A stretch of 12,388 nt of DNA from Pseudomonadota bacterium. GTDB lineage: Bacteria > UBA10199 > 2-02-FULL-44-16 > JBDRGF01. The notes below the pieces were generated by a model. It was given only the letters and a program-made list of their open reading frames with translations. It was not told where the DNA came from and searched no databases. Below are positions 1-12,388 of this stretch, one piece after another; within the stretch, counting starts at the first letter, position 1; every line of letters starts with the position of its first letter. Both the position numbers and the translations under genes were made by a program. The stretch is taken from contig JBDRGF010000074.1 of assembly GCA_043818055.1 (NCBI GenBank), forward strand, positions 1 through 12,388. Reading direction: 5' to 3'.

Positions 1-696
1 ACGATTGCGAACATTCCTTTCAGGAATATCATTGCGGAGTTTTCGGAACAGCCTTCTTGGACAGGCACCAAGGTGCATACCGTTATTGATGGAAGTAGTT
101 TGGAGATTGAAAGCGGATACTTGTCGGGGACGTATGAGACGCCGGTGAGGGATTTAGGATATGTGTCTACGGTCTATATCGGCATTGAAGCCGTTATAAC
201 CATTGCCACGGGCAGGGCATTCGATGACGATTCGGTGACGAGGTTCAATACCAGCGACACGTTAAGGTTTAGCGGTGAGGAAAGTCCCGGGGCGGCCACG
301 TTCGAGATAAAAATATCAGATGACAACATCACATGGTCCGGCTGGATGGAGTATCAGGCCGGGGATTATAACTGCCGGTATTATCAAATAAGGATGACAT
401 TGACCAGAGAGAATGTGGGCGATGACCTTGAGTGCACGACGTTCGATCATTATGGGGATTTACCCGATGTGGATGAGTATGGAAGCGATACGGTAACCGA
501 CGCAGGAACGGGCAAGGCGGTCGTGTTTACGAAGAATTACCATGAAGAACCGAACGTGCATATCGAGATCACGTCAGGCAGTGGGATTTACGCACAATTC
601 ACAAGCAAGAGCACGACGGGGTTTACGGTGAAATTATATGACGCCTCTGGCGTTGCCCAGACCGGAGATTTAGATTGGCATGGGCATGGAATTTAA
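1..696 (+). CDS. Phage tail protein, C-terminal part (5' truncated by the window edge)
   Basis: Frame +1 is open from base 1 (TIANIPFRNIIAEFSEQPSWTGTKVHTVIDG...), so the GTG at 73 is probably internal. The sequence is Thr/Gly/Asp-rich and beta-rich (SDDNITWSGW, RYYQIRMTL). It ends in a VVFTKNY..PNV...GFTVKLYD...DWHGHG module like those at the end of phage tail-tip and fibre proteins. Confidence 0.7.
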   Translation, partial: TIANIPFRNIIAEFSEQPSWTGTKVHTVIDGSSLEIESGYLSGTYETPVRDLGYVSTVYIGIEAVITIATGRAFDDDSVTRFNTSDTLRFSGEESPGAATFEIKISDDNITWSGWMEYQAGDYNCRYYQIRMTLTRENVGDDLECTTFDHYGDLPDVDEYGSDTVTDAGTGKAVVFTKNYHEEPNVHIEITSGSGIYAQFTSKSTTGFTVKLYDASGVAQTGDLDWHGHGI

Positions 697-707
697 GGAG
701 AGAGAAA

Positions 708-923
708 ATGGCAAGAACTTTAGTGCCTCACAAAGTAGTCATCGAGTTCGAAGACGGAGAGTTCGTAAACGGCGTATTGATCTATAAGATAAACGATAAC
801 GGAGTGATCAGCAGATATAAAAGCGTCGGGATAAAAAATGCGGGTTTTGATAAGGTGAGCCTGAATGGGATACTGCAGAAATTCAATGCGCACGCAAAAC
901 AGGCGGAGGGAATCGATGGATGA
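708..923 (+). CDS. Small phage hypothetical protein, 71 aa (MARTLVPHKVVIEF...)
   Basis: ATG at 708 follows an AAGGAG RBS at the upstream stop, a better start than 675. The stop overlaps the next gene. Confidence 0.7.
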   Translation: MARTLVPHKVVIEFEDGEFVNGVLIYKINDNGVISRYKSVGIKNAGFDKVSLNGILQKFNAHAKQAEGIDG

Positions 924-1194
924 TTTAATTTGCGCCAAGTGCGGGAAGCCGATATCCCAGGATATGGCTTATGTCGTAGTAAAGGGAAGCATTGTCCTGA
1001 GGGAACCTAAAAAGAGGCCTATGGTTTTTACGTGCATAGAGCAGGCATATAACTACGCCCAGAGCTTGGTGGTGCATGACATATGTTGGATTACGATGCT
1101 TAGAGAGCATGGCGTGGAATTATACGATATGAACGAAGTAGCCAAAAAATACAAGAAGGAGACTCAAGATGGCTTGGGACAAAACAAAACCTGA
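916..1194 (+). CDS. Small putative Zn-binding phage protein, 92 aa (MDDLICAKCGKP...HDIC)
   Basis: GGAGG RBS precedes ATG 916. An N-terminal CxxC and a later HxxC could form a zinc site. Overlaps both neighbours. Confidence 0.65.
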   Translation: MDDLICAKCGKPISQDMAYVVVKGSIVLREPKKRPMVFTCIEQAYNYAQSLVVHDICWITMLREHGVELYDMNEVAKKYKKETQDGLGQNKT

Positions 1195-1813
1195 AAACGA
1201 TATGCTTCTGATCAACTTTCCGCCAGCATGCCGAGCGAACTGGGATGCATTGGAATTATTGACGGATGCTAATTTGCAGATAACCAATGCCAAAGTTGCG
1301 GCAGGTGCCGGGATTGTGGATACGAAGCTGGCACAGATTACGACTGCCAGCAAAGTTAGTGGATCGGCGTTGACCGGGCTGGCCAGCGTGCCTTCGGGTG
1401 CAGGGGTTCTGCCGGAGGCAAATTCTCCTAGCAAATTGAAAGCGGACGCAAGCGATACCACGCCTCAATATCTCGATGGATTAATCGATACGGGAGTATT
1501 CCAGGTTTCTGCTGGGGATTTATTACAACTTGCCAACGGCGGGGTCGGAACGGAGAAATTGGTTGGCGGTGCGGCGAGCCCTGGCAACAACAAGGCGTAT
1601 GGGACTAACAGCAGCGGGACAAAGGGTTTTTATGATGTGGTGGATTTAGCGACCAATCAAATATTAACTGGAGAAAAGACTTTCAATAATTTAAAGCTCG
1701 GGGGAAATGCCAATTGCAATCAGAAGCAATTAGTTTCGGCCGTGATAGAAAATAGGACGTCCGATCCAGGCAGTCCGGCCAATGGGCAGATATGGATTAG
1801 GACGGATTTATAG
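1169..1813 (+). CDS. Phage tail-fibre-like / structural protein, 214 aa
   Basis: AAGGAG RBS. Gly/Ala/Thr-rich with ITNAKVA and IVDTKLA-type fibre repeats, and a C-terminal RTSDPGSPANGQIW motif common in tail-fibre proteins. Confidence 0.65.
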   Translation: MAWDKTKPENDMLLINFPPACRANWDALELLTDANLQITNAKVAAGAGIVDTKLAQITTASKVSGSALTGLASVPSGAGVLPEANSPSKLKADASDTTPQYLDGLIDTGVFQVSAGDLLQLANGGVGTEKLVGGAASPGNNKAYGTNSSGTKGFYDVVDLATNQILTGEKTFNNLKLGGNANCNQKQLVSAVIENRTSDPGSPANGQIWIRTDL

Positions 1814-1825
1814 AGGTAAAAGAAT

Positions 1826-2701
1826 ATGCCAGATCCTTCTTGGAATTTAACTGATCAGGATTGCAATGCTTTCGATCTTAATTGGAGCGCAAATACCGTT
1901 GGATCGGCAACATTGATAACGACTACTTATGATGGTAGATCGGTATACAAATATGATTGCCCTCAGCCTGGATCCAGCAATAACGCCTATGCCGTCAATA
2001 GCAGTCTTTCGGCTTGGACCGAATGCACTGCAGAGGTCGTGTTTAGAATAGACGGCACAGATGGCAACCATATAGTTTTTCAATTCTATTTAAGGGACAG
2101 CACGCCTCACGAATACAATGCCAATCTGTATTTCGATACCCAGTGGACAGCTCATCCATATATTTGGATGGCGGCGCCGCTTCTGGGTGTCGATTTACAG
2201 CAATGGATTGATATCGATGAAAATGGGTGGCACACCTTGCGGGTAGTCATCAATAGTTCTCGTAAGATGTGGGTTTGGGTTGATGGCGTATACCTTGGGT
2301 CGATTACACATGATGGCACGGTAGCATCTGGCTATACGGTTAACACCATCGGAGTTCATGCATATGGGCCTCAGAGGACGCCCCCGCCATCGAATAGGGT
2401 GCTTTATATAGATCACATACGAATGTCATCTTCCAAGGTCGAGCCTGATTATCACGGTATTGTTAACGTGCAAGGTTATCCCATAAATACAAGGATGGCT
2501 TCTTTGGGCCCTGGAAATATGGGCGGTTTGACCGATGTCAATCCTGTAGATGTTTTTCGATATCTACGAACGGGGATGCCAAGGGGAGATGTTAGATATG
2601 GCCTTCCGATTGTTTCTACTGGCGATGGTTTGGCGAGTAAGGTCAGGCTATATTCGGGAGGTTCCATAAAAGCTTTACAGAAAATGCCGGTATCATTTTA
2701 A
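1826..2701 (+). CDS. Putative receptor-binding / tail-associated protein with a ConA/LamG-like beta-sandwich, 291 aa
   Basis: GAGG RBS. WHTLRVVINSSRKMWVWVDG and LYIDHIRM resemble concanavalin-A-like lectin strands. Aromatic-rich, and last gene of the tail block. Confidence 0.55.
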   Translation: MPDPSWNLTDQDCNAFDLNWSANTVGSATLITTTYDGRSVYKYDCPQPGSSNNAYAVNSSLSAWTECTAEVVFRIDGTDGNHIVFQFYLRDSTPHEYNANLYFDTQWTAHPYIWMAAPLLGVDLQQWIDIDENGWHTLRVVINSSRKMWVWVDGVYLGSITHDGTVASGYTVNTIGVHAYGPQRTPPPSNRVLYIDHIRMSSSKVEPDYHGIVNVQGYPINTRMASLGPGNMGGLTDVNPVDVFRYLRTGMPRGDVRYGLPIVSTGDGLASKVRLYSGGSIKALQKMPVSF

Positions 2702-2730
2702 CAAGATATTGCTTGAGGTAAATCGAGATC

Positions 2731-2982
2731 ATGACAGAAAAGACCGTACCAGAACGATTGGCAGTTATCGAAACGGAGATTACGAATATCAAAGAGACCT
2801 TGGATGATATCAAAAACAATCACCTGAACTCTATCTACAATAAATTCGACGATATGTGGCAAAAATTTGTTTGCTTCGAAAAGAAGATGACCAGCCGGTT
2901 GCCTTTGTGGGGCACGATGATGATAACCCTTTTGACTTCATTGTGCGTCGGATTGATAGTTTACGGAGTGATGAGGAAATAA
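2731..2982 (+). CDS. Holin-like protein (XhlA-like architecture: coiled coil plus one C-terminal TM helix), 83 aa
   Basis: N-terminal heptad ERLAVIETEITNIKETLDDIK, C-terminal hydrophobic LWGTMMITLLTSLCVGLIVYGVM with a basic end, located right after the tail genes. Confidence 0.5.
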   Translation: MTEKTVPERLAVIETEITNIKETLDDIKNNHLNSIYNKFDDMWQKFVCFEKKMTSRLPLWGTMMITLLTSLCVGLIVYGVMRK

Positions 2983-2998
2983 GAAAAAGAGGTGAGAT

Positions 2999-3493
2999 AT
3001 GCTGAGAAAAATAATCGTGATTTCGACGGTGAGTTTATTGCTGGCCGGGTGCGCGGGGATACCCTTCCCCAAAATTACGACTCCCAAGAAACCAGAAACG
3101 GTTTATAACTGGCGGGAAGAAGTAACTACGAAGCCCAGGGCGATAATAGCCGACGATAAGGCCTATGTAGTTGAGGAAACAAAAAAGACACTACAGGTAG
3201 GGCTGGAGACTACCCATCGCAACTTGACGCTGGGAGAGAAAATCGGCAACTGGTTTTCAGGGTTGAGCCTGCTGGCTATCATTGCTTTGGTTGTGGGATT
3301 GGTTTTGTGCCCGGGCGCCACTTTGGCCTGGCTGGTCAAGCTTCTTTTCAAATGGAAAAAGGCAATGAGAGAGACAGTGGCCGCTATCAAAGAATCCAGG
3401 GCAGTCGAGAATGCGGAATTGCATAATGCCCTGAAAGATAAACAAAGCGTCGAGACCAAAAAGATAGTCGGACAGATAAAGGCGGATCTTTAA
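2999..3493 (+). CDS. Lipoprotein with an internal TM segment (spanin-like lysis protein candidate), 164 aa
   Basis: GAGGTG RBS. Signal peptide MLRKIIVISTVSLLLAG-C with lipobox LAGC, and a second hydrophobic stretch LSLLAIIALVVGLVLCPGATLAWLV. Confidence 0.55.
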   Translation: MLRKIIVISTVSLLLAGCAGIPFPKITTPKKPETVYNWREEVTTKPRAIIADDKAYVVEETKKTLQVGLETTHRNLTLGEKIGNWFSGLSLLAIIALVVGLVLCPGATLAWLVKLLFKWKKAMRETVAAIKESRAVENAELHNALKDKQSVETKKIVGQIKADL

Positions 3494-3600
3494 AAATATT
3501 GCAGAATAAGGTGAATCTTGGAAAGCAAGAAAAGATGAAAGAATGAGTTGCATTCCCTTCTCTTTTACGGTCTACTCCCCCTATAAAGGAGGGGATTTTT

Positions 3601-3867
3601 ATGGTTCGTGAAAACATAACGGCAAAGAAGACGCGGTATATCAGTGTCAGAAACGGCGGCGAAGAGACGTATGTCGAGAATATTCCGGTATCCGGCCGGA
3701 TGAGGGATCACCTGCCAGCCGCAAAACTGCGTCTGCGGGAGATTCAGCGCGTGATGCCTCTTGGCAAATGGTCGATTACGATCGAACAGCAATGGAAGGA
3801 AAACGGCGTTACGCATTTCCAGATGCTCGATGTTGTAACCGGCAAATTGCAGGAGTCGGTGCTGTGA
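3601..3867 (+). CDS. Hypothetical protein, 88 aa
   Basis: Strong AAGGAGG RBS at 3586-3592. The stop overlaps the next start (GTGA). Confidence 0.75.
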   Translation: MVRENITAKKTRYISVRNGGEETYVENIPVSGRMRDHLPAAKLRLREIQRVMPLGKWSITIEQQWKENGVTHFQMLDVVTGKLQESVL

Positions 3868-4034
3868 CGGGCAAATACCAATGGCCAGCTTCGCGATTGG
3901 GCGATAAAGAGATGGCCTTGTTGTTTCGGGAGAAGCAGAAGGCCAAAAGGAGCATCTGCGAGTTGTTGCGCAGAGCTGTCGATATTGCCTATGGTGAGGA
4001 TTCTGGCAAAAAGGAGGATCAAGATGGCGACTAA
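3864..4034 (+). CDS. Small ribbon-helix-helix (CopG/Arc-like) DNA-binding protein candidate, 56 aa
   Basis: AGGAG at 3851-3855 then GTG 3864, a better start than 3768. MTGKYQWPASRLGDKEMALLFREKQKAKRSICELLRRAVDIAY fits strand-helix-helix with an S..EL.R.AV second helix. Confidence 0.5.
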   Translation: MTGKYQWPASRLGDKEMALLFREKQKAKRSICELLRRAVDIAYGEDSGKKEDQDGD

Positions 4035-4332
4035 ACAAAAGCAAAAACGTAAGAAACAAAAGGCTGTAGAAGATAAAAAGGTTTCAACCGTAAATTCTCC
4101 ATCGCCTAAAGAAGGAATTGTTATGCATGCCGGGGCATCGCGTAATGAACTTATGATGACGGCCAAGGAACGCGGGGTTAAAAACTTCCGCGTGCTAAAC
4201 AAGCAGGAGCTGATCGATGTATTGAAGAATATCGGAGATCAGAAAGCCATTAATACGATTGTGACCGGTGCGGTTGCCAGATGGAAATCCGGCTGGGGTA
4301 AGAGAAAGGACAAGAATGAAAGTCAAAGCTGA
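4024..4332 (+). CDS. Basic protein with a Rho_N-like (helix-extension-helix) nucleic-acid-binding motif, 102 aa
   Basis: AAGGAGG RBS before ATG 4024. SRNELMMTAKERGVKNFRVLNKQELID matches the Rho N-terminal pattern EL...AK..G......L.K.ELI. Lys-rich N-terminus. Confidence 0.65.
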   Translation: MATKQKQKRKKQKAVEDKKVSTVNSPSPKEGIVMHAGASRNELMMTAKERGVKNFRVLNKQELIDVLKNIGDQKAINTIVTGAVARWKSGWGKRKDKNESQS

Positions 4333-4630
4333 ACTTGATTTAAAGGTTGAAATGGGCGGCGTGTCGCATGACGGCACTGGATGTCAGGGTTATCTGCCGG
4401 AAGGTACGCGGTATGAGGATATTGTCCGGGTGTTCGGTGGACCCCAGCTTGGCAAATCGCCGGACGGCAAGATCAAGGTTGAGTGGGTTGGTAGGATCAA
4501 CGGCCTTCTTTTTACGATTTATGACTACAAGTCAAAGACTGATCCGGAGCAGAATATCGATTGGCATATTGGTGGGAAGACAAAATTTACAGCGGAATTG
4601 GTGAACTTATTCTTTAAAGCAAAGCAATAA
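4316..4630 (+). CDS. Phage hypothetical protein, 104 aa (GT..QG...Y......FG.P....DGK...EW...TIYD.K...WHIGG pattern)
   Basis: AAAGGA RBS before ATG 4316, a better start than 4268. The pattern resembles small phage proteins of unknown function. Followed by a terminator. Confidence 0.7.
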   Translation: MKVKAELDLKVEMGGVSHDGTGCQGYLPEGTRYEDIVRVFGGPQLGKSPDGKIKVEWVGRINGLLFTIYDYKSKTDPEQNIDWHIGGKTKFTAELVNLFFKAKQ

Positions 4631-4651: not shown

Positions 4652-4690
4652 AGAACCTCTGTTTGAAAAATAATCAATCAGAGGTTTTTT
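4652..4690 (+). terminator. Rho-independent terminator
   Basis: Stem AACCTCTGtTTGA / TCAAtCAGAGGTT with one mismatch and a 7-nt loop, running into TTTTTT (4685-4690), about 20 nt after the 4630 stop. Confidence 0.75.
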
Positions 4691-4691
4691 G

Positions 4692-4720
4692 TTGACACTG
4701 TTAGCTAACAGTGCTAACAT
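4692..4720 (+). promoter_or_regulatory. Sigma70-type promoter of the defence operon (probably leaderless)
   Basis: TTGACA (4692-4697), 17-nt spacer, TAACAT (4715-4720) with an extended -10 TG at 4712-4713. The ATG at 4727 sits 7 nt after the -10 box and has no SD. Confidence 0.8.
4696..4713. promoter_or_regulatory. Palindromic operator CACTGTTAG|CTAACAGTG
   Basis: Perfect 18-bp inverted repeat filling the -35/-10 spacer, extendable imperfectly to 4690-4719 (TGTT..AACA), directly upstream of an HTH-containing gene. Confidence 0.75.
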
Positions 4721-4726
4721 ATAGAT

Positions 4727-5986
4727 ATGGCTCAAGAAACTTTGGGGAACAAAATCAGAAAGGAAAGAAAAAAAAGGTCAATTTCTCTAAGAAAGTTGGC
4801 TGAGAATCTTGAAATAGCGCCAGCTTATCTTGTTGATATCGAAAAGGACAGAAGGATACCTTCTCAAGATATCATCCAGAAAATTGCCGACCTTCTTGAT
4901 GTTCCCATCGTTGAACTCCAACAGTTTGGATCTGATATTCCGAAACCAGTCAAAGAATGGCTTGAAGGAAATCCCGTCATTTCAAAAATCTTGAACCTCA
5001 TCAAGAAAACATCAATTCCCGAAAAAACAATTTCTGATTTTGAATCTTTTATTAAAAGTCCCCTAAATAAACAACCAATTCTTGCTATTTATGAATCTGA
5101 ATTACAGGCAATCGGACAAGAAAGCATTTCTTGGGATACAGAAACGGGAGGAGATCTTTTTGGTGTTAGTGGAGAGATGCCGATAATATACTTAGCAACA
5201 AGGTCTGGGCCGAATACCATTCGGAATCATGCTCATTTTCGTTTAGATGTTGAGTACCTAATAAAGTTGAGTATTGATCTTGATAATGATTGGGGACTGA
5301 GATATTTCGGAGATTGGCATTCCCATCATCGCTTAGGGCTTCAGTTCCCTAGCTCGGGAGACCAAAGAAGAATAAATCAAATTGCCAGGAAGAACAATTT
5401 TTTAGAAATGGCCGAGATGATTATTACGTTTTCATCATCGTTTGATTCGGATAAAAAAGTACAAGTAAACCCATACGTTTATTGTGAAGTTGTTTCAGAG
5501 GCACCAGTAGAAGCCGCTTTGATTATTTTAAAAGGATTAAGTCCTGTTCGGGAAGTTCTTCTCAAATCAGGAGGTTTCTCGGAACAACGCTTATTTCAAT
5601 ACTCTTCTTTTTCCATTGATCACATCATCGCGCCAAGAGAGCCTCTCGGAAGATTGCAAAGTGTAGAGGGTCTCCCAATTGACCAAATAACAGGAAAGGT
5701 ATTAAGGCGGGTAATATTGGAACTGGAGAAATTGTCTTGCGGAAAAATTGAAGAACACAAAACTCAATTCGGGCTTGTCTTAGTGGCACCAATAAATGAT
5801 GAAGAATATATTGGTTTTGCTATCGATGGTAAATGGCCGCATCAAATTCTTCAAATCAATTGGATTAATAGAAAAACAGGAAAGACTGAGGAGTTGCCAA
5901 TGCAACTAGATAATGCGACGCTTATAAATTTGCCGCGGTTGAATGAAATTTTCTGCAAAGCAAAAGATTTTAAAATTGCAAAATGA
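4727..5986 (+). CDS. XRE/Cro-C1 HTH fused to a JAB/MPN+ metallo-isopeptidase, plus a C-terminal domain, 419 aa
   Basis: aa ~5-65 LGNKIRKERKKRSISLRKLAENLEIAPAYLVDIEKDRRIPS is an XRE HTH. The JAMM motif is intact: E139 (ETGG), GDWH198-S-H200, PS209-S-G-D212. Confidence 0.85.
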   Translation: MAQETLGNKIRKERKKRSISLRKLAENLEIAPAYLVDIEKDRRIPSQDIIQKIADLLDVPIVELQQFGSDIPKPVKEWLEGNPVISKILNLIKKTSIPEKTISDFESFIKSPLNKQPILAIYESELQAIGQESISWDTETGGDLFGVSGEMPIIYLATRSGPNTIRNHAHFRLDVEYLIKLSIDLDNDWGLRYFGDWHSHHRLGLQFPSSGDQRRINQIARKNNFLEMAEMIITFSSSFDSDKKVQVNPYVYCEVVSEAPVEAALIILKGLSPVREVLLKSGGFSEQRLFQYSSFSIDHIIAPREPLGRLQSVEGLPIDQITGKVLRRVILELEKLSCGKIEEHKTQFGLVLVAPINDEEYIGFAIDGKWPHQILQINWINRKTGKTEELPMQLDNATLINLPRLNEIFCKAKDFKIAK

Positions 5987-6447
5987 CTATGGAAGAACGA
6001 TTAATATTAGAGAATCAGATACTTACCAGAGAGGGATTTTCTCAGTTTCAAATTTACACAGGACAAACTGCCGGAAATTATTATCTGTGGGGTGAGCAAC
6101 GAACGAGCAAGGGTAGTTCTTATAAAATTTGGAGTCCTATACCATCAACATACCCATATTCAAAACCACCTGTTTATGTTTATGACCCCAACCCTCTTTG
6201 GGCATATGGAGGAAACAAAACCGTTAATAGTTTTAGTGATAATGGTACTTCCCATAAAATGCATACATTAACAAATGGGCCGAATGGAGAAGTTCAAATT
6301 TGTCATTGGCATCCAGATCGTTGGCATAGCGGGATTACTCTTAACCGTGTAATGTTGAAGGTCGTTTTATGGCTTGAAGCTTATGAACAGCATCGAGACA
6401 CAGGTAAAGACATTTGTGACTTTGTTAGGACGATGGCGCAAACTTAG
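5983..6447 (+). CDS. Stand-alone E2/UBC-fold ubiquitin-conjugating-like protein, 154 aa
   Basis: UBC hallmarks: N-terminal RL..E helix, IPSTYPYSKPPV, H...NGEVQIC107 (putative catalytic Cys), W....TL..V....VLWL. ATGA overlap with the upstream gene. Confidence 0.8.
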   Translation: MTMEERLILENQILTREGFSQFQIYTGQTAGNYYLWGEQRTSKGSSYKIWSPIPSTYPYSKPPVYVYDPNPLWAYGGNKTVNSFSDNGTSHKMHTLTNGPNGEVQICHWHPDRWHSGITLNRVMLKVVLWLEAYEQHRDTGKDICDFVRTMAQT

Positions 6448-6456
6448 GAGATTTTT

Positions 6457-6636
6457 ATGGCAACTCAAAAAGAAATGATTAGGGAGGCTATGGAATCTAT
6501 AGCAGCCCGTAAACCGGGAAGAACAAAACTCGTTTACGATAAAAGCTCAAGAACGATAGTTGCTGTTTCTTTGACCGACCAAACTGTAAGAGGATTAAAC
6601 ATTTCGGCTGAAGATGCTGACATGTTTTTAAGCTGA
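6457..6636 (+). CDS. Unannotated 59-aa protein MATQKEMIREAMESIAARKPGRTKLVYDKSSRTIVAVSLTDQTVRGLNISAEDADMFLS
   Basis: Not in the ORF track, whose shortest ORFs are 60 aa. AGGAG RBS at 6446-6450, ATG 6457, and its TGA (6634-6636) overlaps the E1 ATG (TGATG). It fills the E2-E1 gap exactly. Confidence 0.85.
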   Translation: MATQKEMIREAMESIAARKPGRTKLVYDKSSRTIVAVSLTDQTVRGLNISAEDADMFLS

Positions 6637-7952
6637 TGATTACTATTACTGCTGAATATTTAAATCAAAATTGGAATATCCTACAGACGAACTCTATTCT
6701 ACCCACTCCATTGTCTGAATGGGACAATGGCGATGCATATACTTTGGCCTCCTTAGGACAATTTCCAAGTTCTAAAACTGTATTTGCTGCTATTGTTCTT
6801 GGTGATAAAAAACTAAGCGATTTTCAGTTCATAATCCGACTTCATAAACTGGAAAATGACACTCCCCAATCTTATCGTGCACCTACAGGTGATATATATG
6901 AAGCCGTTGCCGAAGCTATTGTTGATGGAAATTCCAAAAAAATTGAAATCAAGATAGTTAGTCTCATGATTGATTTGTCTTGTCGGCGTAAAAAGTTGAT
7001 TGAGGCAGATTTATTAAAAGACGTAACGGTTTTTATCGTTGGTTTGGGGACTGGTGGTATACAGGTTGCTTTAGATTTGGCGAAATCTGGAATTGGCAAA
7101 TTTAATCTTATGGATCCAGATAGGTTAGAAGTTGGGAATATATCTCGACATTACGCGGGTATATCTCTCGTGGGTCGAACAAAAGTAAAGGCCGCTAGGG
7201 ATTTAATCTTAGATAAAAATCCAATGGCTGAAGTTGAAACCTATGTAATGTCTGCTGAGCCTGACCAGAGAGAGGTGTTGAGAGAATTAATTGAAAAAAG
7301 TTCCCTAGTTATTTGTGCTACAGATAACCGTCAAAGCAAACTCTTACTGAATGCACTGTGTGTAACATTACGAAAGACTATAATTTTCGGTGGGGCTTTC
7401 CAACGAGCCTATGGAGGGCAAGTATTTCGGGTACTTCCAGGAGTTTCTCCTTGTTACCATTGCTTCGTTTTGGCCGTACCAGGTAAAGAATCTGATATGG
7501 AAATTTCTTCTCAGAGAAATGCTGACGCGATTGCTTACTCGGATATGCCAGTAGCAGTAGAGCCTGGTCTTTCGATAGATGTTTCTCCGATTGCGAATTT
7601 GATTTCTAAACTTGCTGTGATGGAGTTAATAAAAGGAAAAGATTCGACACTGCATATTCTTGATGAAGATTTCACAGCGCCTTGGTATCTTTGGGTGAAT
7701 CGACCAGAACCAAACACTGAATATGCAACGATTCAGCGACTAAGTGAAAGTGGCGTTGAAGGTAAAGACGGAATGACCATCCTTCGTTGGTATGCAATCC
7801 ATCTGAAAAAAGAATTAGCATGCCCCACATGCGGAGATTTCGAGGGTGCATTACGCAAACAATACGGATTAGTTGAGGGAGATAAACCTTCTCTTTTATC
7901 TCTTCGACTTCCAAACCAAGAATCAGAGAGGGAAATAAATAATGGAACTTAA
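6636..7952 (+). CDS. ThiF/MoeB/E1-family adenylyltransferase with a ~115-aa N-terminal extension, 438 aa
   Basis: VFIVGLGTGG nucleotide-binding loop, DPDRLEVGNISRH, GRTKV, CATDN, and Zn ligands C273xxC276 and C396xxC399. Confidence 0.9.
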   Translation: MITITAEYLNQNWNILQTNSILPTPLSEWDNGDAYTLASLGQFPSSKTVFAAIVLGDKKLSDFQFIIRLHKLENDTPQSYRAPTGDIYEAVAEAIVDGNSKKIEIKIVSLMIDLSCRRKKLIEADLLKDVTVFIVGLGTGGIQVALDLAKSGIGKFNLMDPDRLEVGNISRHYAGISLVGRTKVKAARDLILDKNPMAEVETYVMSAEPDQREVLRELIEKSSLVICATDNRQSKLLLNALCVTLRKTIIFGGAFQRAYGGQVFRVLPGVSPCYHCFVLAVPGKESDMEISSQRNADAIAYSDMPVAVEPGLSIDVSPIANLISKLAVMELIKGKDSTLHILDEDFTAPWYLWVNRPEPNTEYATIQRLSESGVEGKDGMTILRWYAIHLKKELACPTCGDFEGALRKQYGLVEGDKPSLLSLRLPNQESEREINNGT

Positions 7953-8820
7953 TACTTATTTTCAAGGTTTGCTTAGCAATATCGAGCCTGATGACAAAGC
8001 AGTAGCAAAAGCAAAGAAGGCTCATGGGGATTTACGTGAGATTTTAAAAAATGATAAACAAATATCTGATGCAGATCCTGATACGTATTTAGCCGGATCG
8101 TATGCGAGAGACACTGCTATAAACTACATCAAAGATGTGGATGTGATTTTATTAGTAGATCTTGATAACAATAAAACCTCGCCTGATGTCGCAGTCGCTT
8201 GGGTACAGGCGTCACTCCAAGAACATTACTCCAAAGTTATCCCTCAAGGACGATCTGTCCAAGTAAAAACAGACAGCGGTTTTGAATTGGATGTTGTGCC
8301 ATCTATTCCAATTGGGGATCGGAATGGTCCTATCTTAATACCTGATCGAGACATAAAAAACTGGGTCGCTTCTCATCCAAAGGGGCAAATTGCTTTTGGA
8401 GTAGATAAAAATAAGGCCACGGGAGAATGTTACAAGCCCTTAGTAAAGATTATGAAATTTTGGAGAGACAGGTTTAGCAGTGAAACCGCAAAAGTTAAAT
8501 CCTATATTCTTGAGAATTTAATTGGGGAGAATCTAACGGGACAACCTTCTTGCTATGATTCAGGAGTAGTTTCGATTCTGCAAAATGTCTATCAACGCTA
8601 TGCCGTGTATCTGAACACGCGCGTTGTTCCTAGAATTATGGATTTAGGGTATCCATCAGTTAATGTGGCGAAGAGGTGGAAATTTAATGAATTTGCCGCA
8701 TTTATGGAGGAAGTAAGAAAAAGTCAGATGATTGCCAACTCTGCCTTAGAATCACAGAGTGAACAGGAAAGCATAAAGCTTTGGAGACAATTATTCGGAA
8801 CAAAATTTGAATCAAAATGA
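7942..8820 (+). CDS. CBASS cGAS/DncV-like nucleotidyltransferase (CD-NTase, SMODS), 292 aa
   Basis: Pol-beta NTase motif G52-S53-Y...D65-V-D67, third Asp D117 (ELDVVP), then PDRD..W..SHPKG, KPLVKIMKFWR, SYILE and terminal WRQLFG..F. Adjacent to a SAVED effector. Confidence 0.9.
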   Translation: MELNTYFQGLLSNIEPDDKAVAKAKKAHGDLREILKNDKQISDADPDTYLAGSYARDTAINYIKDVDVILLVDLDNNKTSPDVAVAWVQASLQEHYSKVIPQGRSVQVKTDSGFELDVVPSIPIGDRNGPILIPDRDIKNWVASHPKGQIAFGVDKNKATGECYKPLVKIMKFWRDRFSSETAKVKSYILENLIGENLTGQPSCYDSGVVSILQNVYQRYAVYLNTRVVPRIMDLGYPSVNVAKRWKFNEFAAFMEEVRKSQMIANSALESQSEQESIKLWRQLFGTKFESK

Positions 8821-9980
8821 TGCAGCCGCCAAAATTTTTTCTTAGTTATAGCCGCAAGGATGTAGAAGATCTTGCAATTATTGCCCGGATTTTGATGATT
8901 CATGGCATAAAGACTTGGCAGGATATTAATAGCCTTGGTTCTGGGTTAACGGAGGCAGAAATTCGGAAAGCAATTCAAGAAAATTGTACGGGTCTCGTGT
9001 TTTATAGCACGGATGATAGTTTAAAAGCCCCAATGATTCGGAATGTAGAACTCAAAGTTGCAGAGGAGAAATTTTTGCAGGACAAAAATTTTCATATCGT
9101 TCCAATTTTTAAGTCGGGTATTGAAGCATCAAACATTGCTCTTAATGGCTGTTTGAAAACTAAAATATCAGACTTTAATGGAACCATCGTTAGAGATAAT
9201 GATCTCATGGCGGCCGCGCAGAGAGCAGCCTCTCTAGTTTTAAAAAATTTGAGTTTTCCAACGAAAGATTTCCTACCTGTAGGGGTAGTTTCATATCAAA
9301 AAAACTCTGATGACGTTGCTTTAAACCTCGATTTCACTCCCTATTTTCAGGAAGGCTTGCCGCTTGAGAAAACATGGAACAGAGAGTTTGTACCCGCTAT
9401 CGCCTCCTTAAAAGAATCCTTATTGTCAAAAAGAATCACGAATTTAAGATTGTTTTCTCGTGCCCATCTTTCCTTTGGACTTATGTTTGGGTATATCTTT
9501 CGGGATCGGACAGGATTTGTTATTGAGGTTGAACAAATCAACAAACCCAATAGAGAAATATGGAGTACTCAAGCGAAAGAGGAGAGTACTATGCTTACGA
9601 TTGAATGCACCCCAGTAACCAATTTTGGCGTAAAAGACATTGTAGTTAATTTGAATATTATATCGGATGATAATAATTCGTTTAGCAATTACGTTCAAAA
9701 ATCAGGTCTTCGCTATCGGGCATTGATAGAAGCAAAGCCGTCTTCTTATCCTTTCTTGATCTCCAATGGTCAAGCAGTTGTAATCGCTCGTGAGTTAACA
9801 AACAAAATCAAAGAAGCCCATGGAACATATAATACAAATGTTGTGCATCTATTCGCTGCGGTTCCATTTGGTCTTGCCGTAATAATCGGACACCAACTAA
9901 ATGCATGCGGAAGGATTCAATGTTATGAATTTGATAAAGCCAAGAGAGAATATTCCCCTTCGGTTACGTTAGAAAATTGA
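8817..9980 (+). CDS. TIR-SAVED CBASS effector (cyclic-oligonucleotide-activated NADase), 387 aa
   Basis: N-terminal TIR: FFLSYSRKD, TWQD, putative catalytic E78 (RNVEL). C-terminal SAVED: AHLSFGLMFGY, VHLFAAVPFGLAVIIGHQLN, IQCYEF...Y.PS. ATGA overlap with the cyclase. Confidence 0.9.
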   Translation: MMQPPKFFLSYSRKDVEDLAIIARILMIHGIKTWQDINSLGSGLTEAEIRKAIQENCTGLVFYSTDDSLKAPMIRNVELKVAEEKFLQDKNFHIVPIFKSGIEASNIALNGCLKTKISDFNGTIVRDNDLMAAAQRAASLVLKNLSFPTKDFLPVGVVSYQKNSDDVALNLDFTPYFQEGLPLEKTWNREFVPAIASLKESLLSKRITNLRLFSRAHLSFGLMFGYIFRDRTGFVIEVEQINKPNREIWSTQAKEESTMLTIECTPVTNFGVKDIVVNLNIISDDNNSFSNYVQKSGLRYRALIEAKPSSYPFLISNGQAVVIARELTNKIKEAHGTYNTNVVHLFAAVPFGLAVIIGHQLNACGRIQCYEFDKAKREYSPSVTLEN

Positions 9981-9989
9981 GGAATATTA

Positions 9990-10087
9990 ATGCTCGATAT
10001 AAAAACGCTTGTGAGCTATGGTTGTGGGATGCAATGTGCAGTATTGTCGAAATTCTCGACACGATGGAGAAAAAGGACAAGAAGTAA
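9990..10087 (+). pseudogene. Degenerate remnant resembling a type I R-M HsdM N-terminus
   Basis: GAGGA RBS then MLDIKTL. After skipping 2 nt (GT, 10011-10012) it reads ELWLWDAMCSIVEILDTMEKKDKK*, like the HsdM N-terminal pattern LE.WLWDAAC.IRG. The TAA overlaps the hsdR ATG. Confidence 0.5.
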
Positions 10088-12388
10088 TGACGAATAAAAA
10101 AGAATTATCAGAACGGGATATTTGCACGCAATTCATTCTTCCTGCCCTTGTAAAGGCTGGATGGGATGTTGCAAAGCAAATCAGGGAAGAGGTTTATTTC
10201 ACTGACGGGCGTATTTTTGTAAAAGGCAACAAAACTGCTCGGGGTGAAAGAAAGCGCGCCGATTTTATTCTATATCTCAAACCGAATATTCCAATCGCTG
10301 TCATTGAGGCGAAAGATAATAACCATTCCGTTGGGTCCGGCCTACAGCAGGCGTTGGGTTACGCGAAGATACTCGATATTCCGGTTGCCTTCAGTTCAAA
10401 CGGTGATGGATTTGTTCAGCATGATCTTTCCGGGTTCACTCCAGCGATTGAGAAAGAATTATCTTTAGATGCTTTTCCCTCCCCTTCCGAACTTTGGCAG
10501 ATGTATAAAAAACATAAAAAGATCACAACTCCCGAACAGGAAGAAATTGCATCATTCGATTATTTTTTTGATGGGTCAGGGCGTGCGCCCCGTTACTATC
10601 AGCAAATAGCAATAAATAGAACAGTTGAAGCAATCGCGCGCGGCGAGAACAGGGTTCTTCTTGTAATGGCTACCGGTACGGGTAAGACGTATACGGCTTT
10701 TCAGATTATTTATCGCCTTTGGAAAAATGGGCGTAAGAAACGAATCCTTTTTTTAGCAGATCGCAATGTGCTTCTGGATCAAACCAAGCGAAATGATTTT
10801 AAGCATTTTAAAGATCGAATGACGGTTATAAAAAAGAAGAAGATCGACAAAGCGTTTGAAATATACCTTGCTCTTTATCAGGGGTTAACGAACTACAACG
10901 AGGATAAAGACGCATATAAAGAATTCAGCCGGGATTTCTTTGATCTTGTGGTTGTTGATGAGTGCCATCGCGGGAGTGCAGACGCTGATAGTGCTTGGAG
11001 AGCGATATTGGAGTATTTTAGCTCTGCGACCCAGATCGGTCTTACGGCAACGCCGCGGGAAACAAAAGAAATTTCAAATATAGAATATTTCGGCGATCCT
11101 ATTTATACCTATACACTCAAACAGGGTATAGAGGACGGATTTTTAGCTCCTTACAAAGTCATACGTGTCGGACTCAATACCGACCTTGAGGGTTGGCGTC
11201 CGGACGCAGGCAAAAAAGATAAGGACGGCAATGAGGTTGAGGATCGGATTTATAACACTAAAGATTTTGACAAAAACCTTGTTATCGATGAACGGACAAA
11301 GATTGTAGCCAAGAAAATTTCAGAGTATTTAAGAAAAACCGACCGTTTTGACAAAACAATAGTATTTTGTGTTGATATTGAACACGCCGAACGCATGAGA
11401 CAGGCGTTGGCTATTGAGAACTCGGATTTGGCGCTTGAGAATTATAAATACATCATGCGAATAACCGGTGATGATGATGAAGGTAAACGAGAAGTAGACA
11501 ATTTCATAAATCCCGAAGAGCGTTATCCGGTTATAGCCACCACTTCAAAGTTGATGACCACCGGTGTTGACGCGCAGACCTGCAAATTGATTGTGCTTGA
11601 TTCAAATATCAAGTCGATGACTGAATTCAAGCAGATTATCGGGCGTGGGACACGTATTAATGAAGAATATGGTAAAACTTTTTTCGCCATTATGGATTTT
11701 CGCAATGTGACCGATCTTTTCGCTGATCCGGCTTTTGATGGTGATCCTGTTATGATCAAGCAGGTTAAGGGAGAAGAGGAATTAACAGACCAAGATATTA
11801 ACCCGGAAGAAGGTCAGGAAACCATTGATCCTGATACTGGAAAGCCGGTTGATTTCGAAAAAGAAGAAACAAAAGAGTATTCGGTTCAACCAGAAATTAT
11901 CCAAGGCGGGTCAATAGTATCCGAGCCTCAGCCGAAGATTTATGTGGCAGGCGTAGATGTTTCGGTCTTAAATGAGCGGGTTCAGCATTTAGATGCGAAC
12001 GGCAAATTGATCATAGAGACGTTAAAGGATTACACGAAAAAAAGTATCCTGCAGGAGTTTCGATCTCTTGATGATTTCCTTGCTAGGTGGAACAGTGCAC
12101 ATAAAAAGAAGGCAGTTGTCGAGGAGTTAGAATCTCACGGTATTATTATCGAAAATCTGATGTCAGAGGTAAAGAAGGATTTGGATGTTTTTGACCTTAT
12201 CTGTCACATTGCGTGGGATATGCCCGCGCTTACCCGCAAAGAGCGATCCGACCAAGTGAGGAAACGTAATTATTTCACTAAATATGGTGAAAAAGCCCGT
12301 GTCGTTATTAATGCTTTGTTAGATAAATATGCCGACGAAGGAATCGAGAATATTGAAGATTTGTCAGTTTTAAGAATTGATCCGTTTA
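10087..12388 (+). CDS. hsdR: Type I restriction enzyme R subunit, EcoAI-like (3' truncated by the window edge)
   Basis: Absent from the ORF track because there is no stop in the window. Reads MTNKKELSERDICTQFILPAL..., nuclease motif RADFIL...IAVIEAK, QALGY, helicase motifs MATGTGKT, DECHRGSA, GLTATP, LMTTGVD, FKQIIGRGTR, and C-terminal DVFDLICHIAW...LTRKER. Spot checks kept one frame to base 12388. Confidence 0.95.
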   Translation, partial: MTNKKELSERDICTQFILPALVKAGWDVAKQIREEVYFTDGRIFVKGNKTARGERKRADFILYLKPNIPIAVIEAKDNNHSVGSGLQQALGYAKILDIPVAFSSNGDGFVQHDLSGFTPAIEKELSLDAFPSPSELWQMYKKHKKITTPEQEEIASFDYFFDGSGRAPRYYQQIAINRTVEAIARGENRVLLVMATGTGKTYTAFQIIYRLWKNGRKKRILFLADRNVLLDQTKRNDFKHFKDRMTVIKKKKIDKAFEIYLALYQGLTNYNEDKDAYKEFSRDFFDLVVVDECHRGSADADSAWRAILEYFSSATQIGLTATPRETKEISNIEYFGDPIYTYTLKQGIEDGFLAPYKVIRVGLNTDLEGWRPDAGKKDKDGNEVEDRIYNTKDFDKNLVIDERTKIVAKKISEYLRKTDRFDKTIVFCVDIEHAERMRQALAIENSDLALENYKYIMRITGDDDEGKREVDNFINPEERYPVIATTSKLMTTGVDAQTCKLIVLDSNIKSMTEFKQIIGRGTRINEEYGKTFFAIMDFRNVTDLFADPAFDGDPVMIKQVKGEEELTDQDINPEEGQETIDPDTGKPVDFEKEETKEYSVQPEIIQGGSIVSEPQPKIYVAGVDVSVLNERVQHLDANGKLIIETLKDYTKKSILQEFRSLDDFLARWNSAHKKKAVVEELESHGIIIENLMSEVKKDLDVFDLICHIAWDMPALTRKERSDQVRKRNYFTKYGEKARVVINALLDKYADEGIENIEDLSVLRIDPF

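Follow-up and report, generated by a model that had tools for sequence, protein, structure and literature searches.

A predicted autorepressor joined to a JAB peptidase heads the operon of an apparently undescribed CBASS variant

We have analysed a stretch of bacterial DNA of 12,388 nucleotides, termed here the window, whose forward strand carries an operon in which a CD-NTase has an adjacent effector, the criterion for CBASS. The first gene of the operon encodes an HTH DNA-binding domain and a JAB peptidase in one chain. The features of the locus are the following.

4654 to 4691, forward strand: hairpin with 13-nt arms (92% complementary) and a run of Ts, adjoining the -35 box; it likely terminates the phage-like genes upstream
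4690 to 4719, no strand: predicted operator palindrome of 15 + 15 nt (87% complementary), overlapping the -35 and -10 boxes
4692 to 4720, forward strand: sigma-70-type promoter match TTGACA-17 nt-TAACAT, from a promoter scan
4727 to 5986, forward strand: HTH-JAB fusion gene, a single open frame of 419 aa
4733 to 4927, forward strand: XRE/HTH_3 DNA-binding domain, aa 3-67, from Pfam and model fold matches
4922 to 5062, forward strand: segment of three helices, aa 66-112, containing conserved W and P residues, a candidate dimerization module
5069 to 5596, forward strand: JAB/JAMM peptidase domain, aa ~115-290, with E139, H198, H200, S209 and D212, from models and fold
5672 to 5983, forward strand: conserved C-terminal domain, aa ~316-419, helix-five strands-helix in the model, with invariant FG and WP
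5983 to 6447, forward strand: stand-alone E2-like protein, 154 aa, with invariant Cys107, from motif pattern and context
6457 to 6636, forward strand: small conserved protein, 59 aa, ending in ADMF plus a variable tail, with a strong SD upstream
6636 to 7952, forward strand: ThiF/E1 adenylation enzyme, 438 aa, with two Zn CxxC pairs (Pfam ThiF, E = 6e-37)
7942 to 8820, forward strand: CD-NTase (SMODS, E = 1.9e-21), 292 aa, with C-terminal Lys
8817 to 9980, forward strand: TIR-SAVED effector, 387 aa, from TIR_2 and SAVED models

Positions 1 to 4630 hold phage-like genes, including tail/baseplate-like, holin-like, lipoprotein and Rho_N-like genes, all except Rho_N labelled by eye. The RNA of the hairpin that follows them folds with -16 kcal/mol (z = -4.8); it was not called by a terminator scan. 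On the other side of the operon an EcoAI-type type I HsdR gene (10087 to 12388) follows directly after the effector in the same direction, possibly on the same transcript. The block comprising CBASS and type I restriction-modification genes has a GC content of about 37-40%, against 45-49% upstream, and begins at the fusion gene.

An XRE HTH at aa ~5-65 and a complete JAMM motif in one frame had been reported in a preliminary description of this DNA, and the 419-aa product bears this out. The Pfam HTH_3 model matches aa 10-64 (E = 3.5e-13, 49.8 bits for a cut-off of 23), and the PADLOC capH model matches aa 2-64 (E = 8e-9). PADLOC JAB models match aa ~135-233 with a best E of 3e-9, while the match to Pfam Prok-JAB is weak (E = 0.019) and falls under its own cut-off. 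An AlphaFold2 model calculated from a 41-sequence alignment has a mean pLDDT of 85.9, with a low-confidence hinge at aa 110-114. Its JAB part superimposes on the archaeal Rpn11 homologue 6fju_B with Z = 16.4 and an rmsd of 2.7 over 156 aligned residues, on Cap3 (9ild_A) with Z = 13.3 and on BilC (8tyy_B) with Z = 11.6, and the best Foldseek matches of the model are CSN5, BRCC36 and Rpn11. The HTH part resembles XRE repressors, with Z = 12.9 for ImmR and 11.5 for the N-terminal domain of CapH. The protein thus has both the JAMM motif E...HxH-x(7-10)-S-x2-D and the MPN fold. The five catalytic residues E139, H198, H200, S209 and D212 are invariant in all 88 full-length sequences, which excludes a degenerate JAB.

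Two further parts of the chain were absent from the preliminary description: the helical segment at aa 66-112 and the C-terminal domain at aa ~316-419. By its modelled topology alone the latter would be RWD/E2-like. It gave nothing significant in Atlas, PDB-sequence and Pfam searches, and profile-profile comparison with the E2, the JAB, the N-terminus of the E1 and the small protein gave a probability below 1% in each case; in fold searches with the whole model the lists were filled by JAB and HTH matches.

A protein search with the fusion returned 560 homologues at E<=0.001. Among the 120 listed most are full-length with HTH_3, and there are also forms of ~345 aa that have no HTH. We fetched 143 related loci from three collection scans (61, 2 from viral contigs, and the best 80 of 425), and in 97 of these the fusion is present in a single frame, excluding an assembly artefact or a one-off fusion. 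The fused loci span Omnitrophota, Acidobacteriota, Planctomycetota, Pseudomonadota and others, and wherever 3.2 kb of downstream sequence is available (71 of 71) the E2, small protein, E1 and CD-NTase follow. The architecture is therefore not peculiar to this assembly, a matter that the preliminary description had left to a survey of homologues, yet the same survey reveals relatives that are HTH-less or separately regulated. About 20 relatives without the HTH retain the whole operon, so that the fusion is unnecessary for the role of the peptidase. All three records in a plasmid collection have no HTH part. With this query the gene was absent from 60 related genomes, which gave one unrelated HTH match; such absence is as expected of mobile cargo.

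Trees of the JAB and of the HTH contain the same two main groups, consistent with long co-inheritance of the two parts. The 19 HTH-less rows on the JAB tree require seven changes of state, at least five of them forced; the tree was made by a quick method, and does not fix whether the fusion is ancestral or derived. Both these 19 rows and the 21 used for the operator comparison below include L095, truncated at the edge of its contig, and L105, for which 126 nt of upstream sequence are available. Among the fetched loci we saw no stand-alone HTH beside the JAB that could have arisen by clean fission: the two-piece cases L041, L051, L096 and L104 look like frameshifts, and a search of shorter proteins for a split HTH gave two matches among just 12 candidates. 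In L099 the HTH has been lost and aa 67-105 have been retained.

The site at 4690-4720 that had been put forward as a candidate for binding by the fusion is indeed an inverted repeat, and lies over the TTGACA-17-TAACAT promoter match. The start codon is 7 nt past the -10 box, and all 84 unique fused loci have it 34-38 nt from the beginning of the -35 box. From this spacing the mRNA is probably leaderless. At the center of the palindrome, at 4700-4709, is a 10-bp core RT-NN-GC-NN-AY. We anchored the operator on the TTGACA-like box together with the central GC, which succeeded in 97 of 98 fused promoters including that of the window; L076 was unanchored, and removal of duplicates and of L097 (mis-anchored by 1 nt) left 84 unique promoters, 79 of which have the exact core.

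As both the central GC and the -35 columns served as anchors they are conserved by construction. Among unanchored columns T12 carries 1.8 bits and A19 2.0 bits, compared with 0-0.4 bits for columns upstream of the -35 box. Positions 13 and 18 are complementary in 73 of the 84 promoters by means of a T-A/A-T swap (shuffled mean 38, with none of 2000 shuffles reaching 73), although the swap follows the two main clades and so possibly represents one or two events. In the outer arms covariation is no better than in shuffles at most pairs. We set aside the mutual information of operator positions with HTH columns, as it mostly reflected the division into clades.

Using a profile trained on the fused set itself, we find one strong site in the 2.9-Mb source genome, scoring 35.6 bits, with the next at 14.4. 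Of 21 HTH-less genes one is preceded by the core, in line with the background of 0.13 per 150 nt. When 34 non-fused loci were scanned, strong sites came up solely in the four apparently frameshifted fusions, with weak sites at the JAB promoter of L037 and, at a distance, in L047. In some fused loci a second operator-like site is present, 20 nt upstream of the main one in L009, L120, L122 and L124, and beside the first also in L010 and L014; such pairs hint at cooperative binding.

A local autorepressor would be expected to give just this pattern, with a palindrome that lies over the two promoter boxes, accompanies the HTH and occurs once in the genome. Autorepression is likely because the palindrome is conserved, exhibits compensatory change, has a single strong occurrence in the genome and is absent where there is no HTH. 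The earlier suggestion that the enzyme may also be the transcription factor of its operon thus gains comparative support. An XRE protein bound over a promoter can also activate at a low level, as C proteins do, and the fusion could act in this manner instead.

Close relatives alternate between three modes of control: the fused HTH, a LexA-type box, and an HTH with an ImmA-like protease. The last is found in L036-L038, where a separate 130-aa HTH protein and an HExxH protein with a weak Peptidase_M78 match (E = 0.016-0.033) precede an HTH-less JAB. The operator core is present at both the HTH and the JAB promoters in all three loci, two of which are near-copies, and their HTHs form a long branch of their own. 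In L036 (4865-7919) and L037 (4888-7789) the pair of HTH and ImmA-like genes directly follows a gene resembling an integrase, which points to an integrative element.

In place of the fused HTH and its operator, 10 of 13 HTH-less loci from Alphaproteobacteria (L030-L033, L035, L039, L044, L045, L047 and L054; L053 had no anchor) carry a GTTC-N7-GTTC box of LexA type. Its distance is constant, and it lies upstream of the codon for the JAB ETGG by 265-290 nt. The N7 spacing is what we take to be that of the alphaproteobacterial LexA box. Such boxes have a background frequency of 0.045 per 450 nt, and were found in none of 11 other non-fused loci and in 2 of 94 fused loci. GTTC and GAAC are given as the consensus words of alphaproteobacterial LexA in the accessible text of PMC6473078. 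The presence in relatives of these boxes and of the HTH and ImmA-like pairs suggests that the operon is generally repressed, and that in the non-fused relatives it is probably damage-inducible. The three modes lend themselves to a comparison of the ways in which toxic immune operons are silenced.

The existence of L036-L038, in which a related HTH is paired with an HExxH protein and the operator core of the fusions recurs, together with the capH match noted above, could be taken to mean that the HTH part of the fusion is a repressor like CapH or ImmR, and that an ImmA or CapP protease coming from elsewhere, for example from a co-resident mobile element, cleaves it in trans. We consider this highly improbable. 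A partner of the CapP/ImmA kind is absent both near the fused forms, where none of the 58 loci with that flank has an HExxH protease gene within 3 kb upstream, and in the source genome (93.6% complete), which has no match to PF06114 or to the L036 protease; there is no Peptidase_M78 partner in the window. Moreover, the separate HTHs belong to the long branch of their own.

The absence of a protease gene upstream of all 58 fused loci fits with plain negative feedback, in which the HTH represses, the JAB works independently and no inducer exists; fusion would then save a gene, fix the dosage and perhaps supply a dimer interface. That HTH-less orthologues retain the same JAB and operon, and that L099 has dispensed with the HTH and kept aa 67-105, are in keeping with such independence. 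We regard this as a tenable reading that is nonetheless somewhat doubtful. The use of damage-induction regulators by the non-fused relatives, with the LexA-type box in 10 of 13 Alphaproteobacteria and an HTH plus ImmA-like gene in three loci, suggests selection for inducibility, and clean fission to a stand-alone HTH beside the JAB is not seen among the fetched loci.

Induction might instead occur by self-cleavage in the manner of LexA or CI, with an activated JAB cutting its own linker or that of its partner and freeing the HTH. The layout of repressor, linker and protease would suit this; fusions of CapH with CapP are known, with 15 systems given in the accessible text of 10.1101/2022.04.27.489752, and the low-confidence hinge at aa 110-114 falls between the two parts. 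In the Acidobacteria-rich group, moreover, the linker often contains xSDML or xADML, resembling the DADMF end of the small protein, and a loose form of the pattern is present in 38 of 88 HTH regions. However, 50 of the 88 are unmatched, among them this protein and its group, the motif lies at a predicted helix start, where acidic residues are common, and from one group to the other the linker shows little conservation. In this fusion the linker has no evident conserved site for cleavage. Copies without the HTH conserve the JAB just as well, so that it has another job. Self-cleavage is thus improbable in our view.

What that job might be is indicated by the remaining genes of the operon. The E2-like protein has Cys107 in 109 of 109 sequences; it has no match in Pfam, PADLOC or NCBIfam, and its Ubc matches are non-significant (E = 1-2). 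Of all products of the operon the small protein is conserved best, with 74% mean column identity, and has no match in Pfam or the Atlas and no conserved Gly end. It is fused to the N-terminus of the E1 in 59 of 99 scored loci and separate in 40. In the E1-fused proteins the F of the DMF end is followed by A or G in 58 of 59, whereas in the 40 separate ones 14 kinds of residue follow it and two proteins stop at the F. The family is wider than these operons, with 138 clusters, and in many of 42 members inspected the chain stops right at DADM[F/I] or at another hydrophobic residue of this kind. Short repeats in the very long proteins P0137, P0156, P0171, P0177 and others like them also match the profile of the small protein in its hairpin part, which may be chance or a recurring motif. 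In the E1 there is no Cys at 277-315 in any of 94 sequences, and Tyr301 is present in all 94, the crossover loop having been located from sequence; the idea that the N-terminal region of the E1 is a dead JAB found no support. For the CD-NTase the NCBIfam cyclase models score under their own cut-offs. The gene after the cyclase, scored in 91 loci, encodes a Cap4-nuclease-SAVED protein in 58, a 167-aa protein with no Pfam match, by its place an unassigned CBASS effector, in 14 (L004:4662-5165 and 13 others), TIR-SAVED in nine, DUF6602 in eight and something else in two.

Similar operons of JAB, E2, small ORF and E1 with no CD-NTase match are found at L057:7962-13254, L060:7851-13429 and L058:6826-11048. 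The small ORFs, similar by eye, lie between E2 and E1, and the E1s have Tyr in the loop, again by eye. The L057 operon is followed by a ClpB-like AAA+ gene and that of L060 by an ORF of similar length, while a class III cyclase-like gene precedes the L058 operon.

The preliminary description had set the fusion against CBASS regulators that are separate from the Cap3 JAB, but the JAB here does not belong to an ordinary type II CBASS: E2 and E1 are separate, the E1 has no crossover Cys and there is a conserved small protein. No E2-E1 fusion is present here or in the loci listed. According to the accessible text of PMC10097602 the substrates of Cap2 end in Gly or Ala, and the CD-NTase here ends in Lys. 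The best candidate for the modifier and substrate of the JAB is the small protein. By analogy the JAB probably trims it into a tag and later removes that tag, since in the accessible parts of the respective reports BilC trims BilA (10.1101/2023.09.26.559546) and BubCD cleaves a Ubl-E2 fusion, with Tyr in place of Cys (10.1101/2024.11.21.623953). With the small protein a better candidate than the CD-NTase, the JAB is possibly a priming protease as much as a deconjugase. A substrate ending in Phe would be unusual for an E1, and the variable residue after the F in separate small proteins fits poorly with the Gly/Ala rule.

Alternatively it is the CD-NTase that becomes conjugated, as happens in type II CBASS, once the JAB has trimmed its tail, and the small protein is a structural subunit of the E1, as its fusion to the E1 in 59 of 99 loci might suggest. 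In 50 of 52 loci with the small-E1 fusion the last F of the CD-NTase is followed by a G, mostly with a single residue after it as in BilA, which keeps the cyclase a possible substrate. For the group to which this protein belongs Gly occurs there in 0 of 30 and Ala in four, and the tail is just 2-7 residues. Operons with no CD-NTase match keep similar small ORFs, and many family members stop right at DADM[F/I] or at another hydrophobic residue of this kind. We judge this alternative to be rather unlikely, and prefer the small protein as modifier.

Taking the sequence comparisons together, the reading we favor, and hold with good confidence, is that the fusion is an autorepressor and an active peptidase in one chain, belonging to a distinct CBASS variant. 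Dimers of the fusion would bind the palindrome through the XRE HTH, for which there is good support, and would block RNA polymerase at the leaderless promoter that serves HTH-JAB, E2, small protein, E1, CD-NTase and TIR-SAVED. There is moderate support for a JAB that trims and/or deconjugates a C-terminal tag, likeliest the small protein of ~57 aa; it would release the small protein from the E1 where the two are fused, and the CD-NTase may also be a substrate. The E1 would adenylate the small protein and pass the tag, perhaps via Tyr301, to Cys107 of the E2. Some coupling between the two activities is favored because clean fissions are lacking and relatives have inducible alternatives. We tentatively propose that repression is lifted when the JAB or the C-terminal domain engages substrate or conjugates, so that the state of tagging feeds back on expression. 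More speculative, and on balance doubtful in its entirety, is a CBASS family with its own bulky-ended non-ubiquitin tag of ~57 aa, a Tyr-type E1, a Cys E2 and a processing and removing peptidase that is also the repressor, in which engagement of tag or conjugate releases the repressor and conjugation controls transcription with no separate damage-sensing protease.

How does this compare with known systems? In common with type II CBASS (class 6b) the operon has a CD-NTase and a SAVED effector with an E1, an E2 and an intact JAB whose fold matches Cap3. In that class Cap2 is an E2-E1 fusion; here the two are separate genes, the E1 has no crossover Cys, there is an extra small protein and the CD-NTase has no Gly/Ala end. 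The JAB gene comes first, and its product gains the N-terminal HTH and the C-terminal domain. Bub type I (BubAB, BubCD, BubE; class 6E) resembles it in having a JAB that processes a modifier joined to an enzyme of the pathway, and an E1 with an invariant crossover Tyr and no Cys (Y370 of BubCD in the accessible text of 10.1101/2024.11.21.623953). Bub type I differs in its beta-grasp Ubl ending in Gly, its Ser-type E2, the fusion of the JAB to the E1, BubE and the absence of a CD-NTase, whereas here the E2 keeps its Cys and the small protein has no Ubl family match. Bil (BilABCD) likewise has separate E2, JAB and E1 and a small modifier trimmed by the JAB. However, BilA is a beta-grasp Ubl with a conserved Gly, the E1 BilD has several domains including a CYS domain, there is no cyclase, and regulation is by separate capH and capP. 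The present operon points to an unstudied conjugation chemistry, of small non-Gly tag, Tyr-type E1 and Cys E2, and is relevant to the question of which roles other than deconjugation Cap3-like peptidases have.

The layout was not seen in the accessible text on classes 6a-6e (PMC1779556), on Cap2 systems (10.1101/2022.03.31.486616) or on Pycsar-like-4 (10.64898/2026.08.12.744502). In the literature searched we found no description of an HTH-JAB fusion, though supplements of CBASS surveys may list such operons. We conclude that the fusion operon is a real, widespread and apparently undescribed CBASS variant with a well-supported predicted operator.

As regards control, one parallel is with the C proteins of restriction-modification systems, which are encoded by leaderless autoregulated XRE genes; these are dedicated regulators and not enzymes of a pathway. 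CapH with CapP, like ImmR/ImmA and DdrO/IrrE, also places an XRE HTH repressor over a defense promoter, the HTH fold here matches CapH and ImmR, and three relatives use an HTH with an ImmA-like gene. In the accessible text of 10.1101/2022.04.27.489752 CapH and CapP are separate genes divergent from the operon, with some fusions to the M78 protease. Here, by contrast, the HTH is fused to the JAB of the system itself, is co-directional with the operon and has no M78 partner. CapW/BrxR and CapK with CapS repress adjacent defense operons and are likewise dedicated regulators (PMC13373217, accessible text). The known CBASS regulators CapW, CapH with CapP, and CapK with CapS are add-on modules that sense DNA damage, whereas here an enzyme of the pathway seems to be the repressor, acting at a short and defined predicted operator. 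Present in many unrelated bacteria, this layout provides a testable link between protein tagging and the control of a cell-killing defense.
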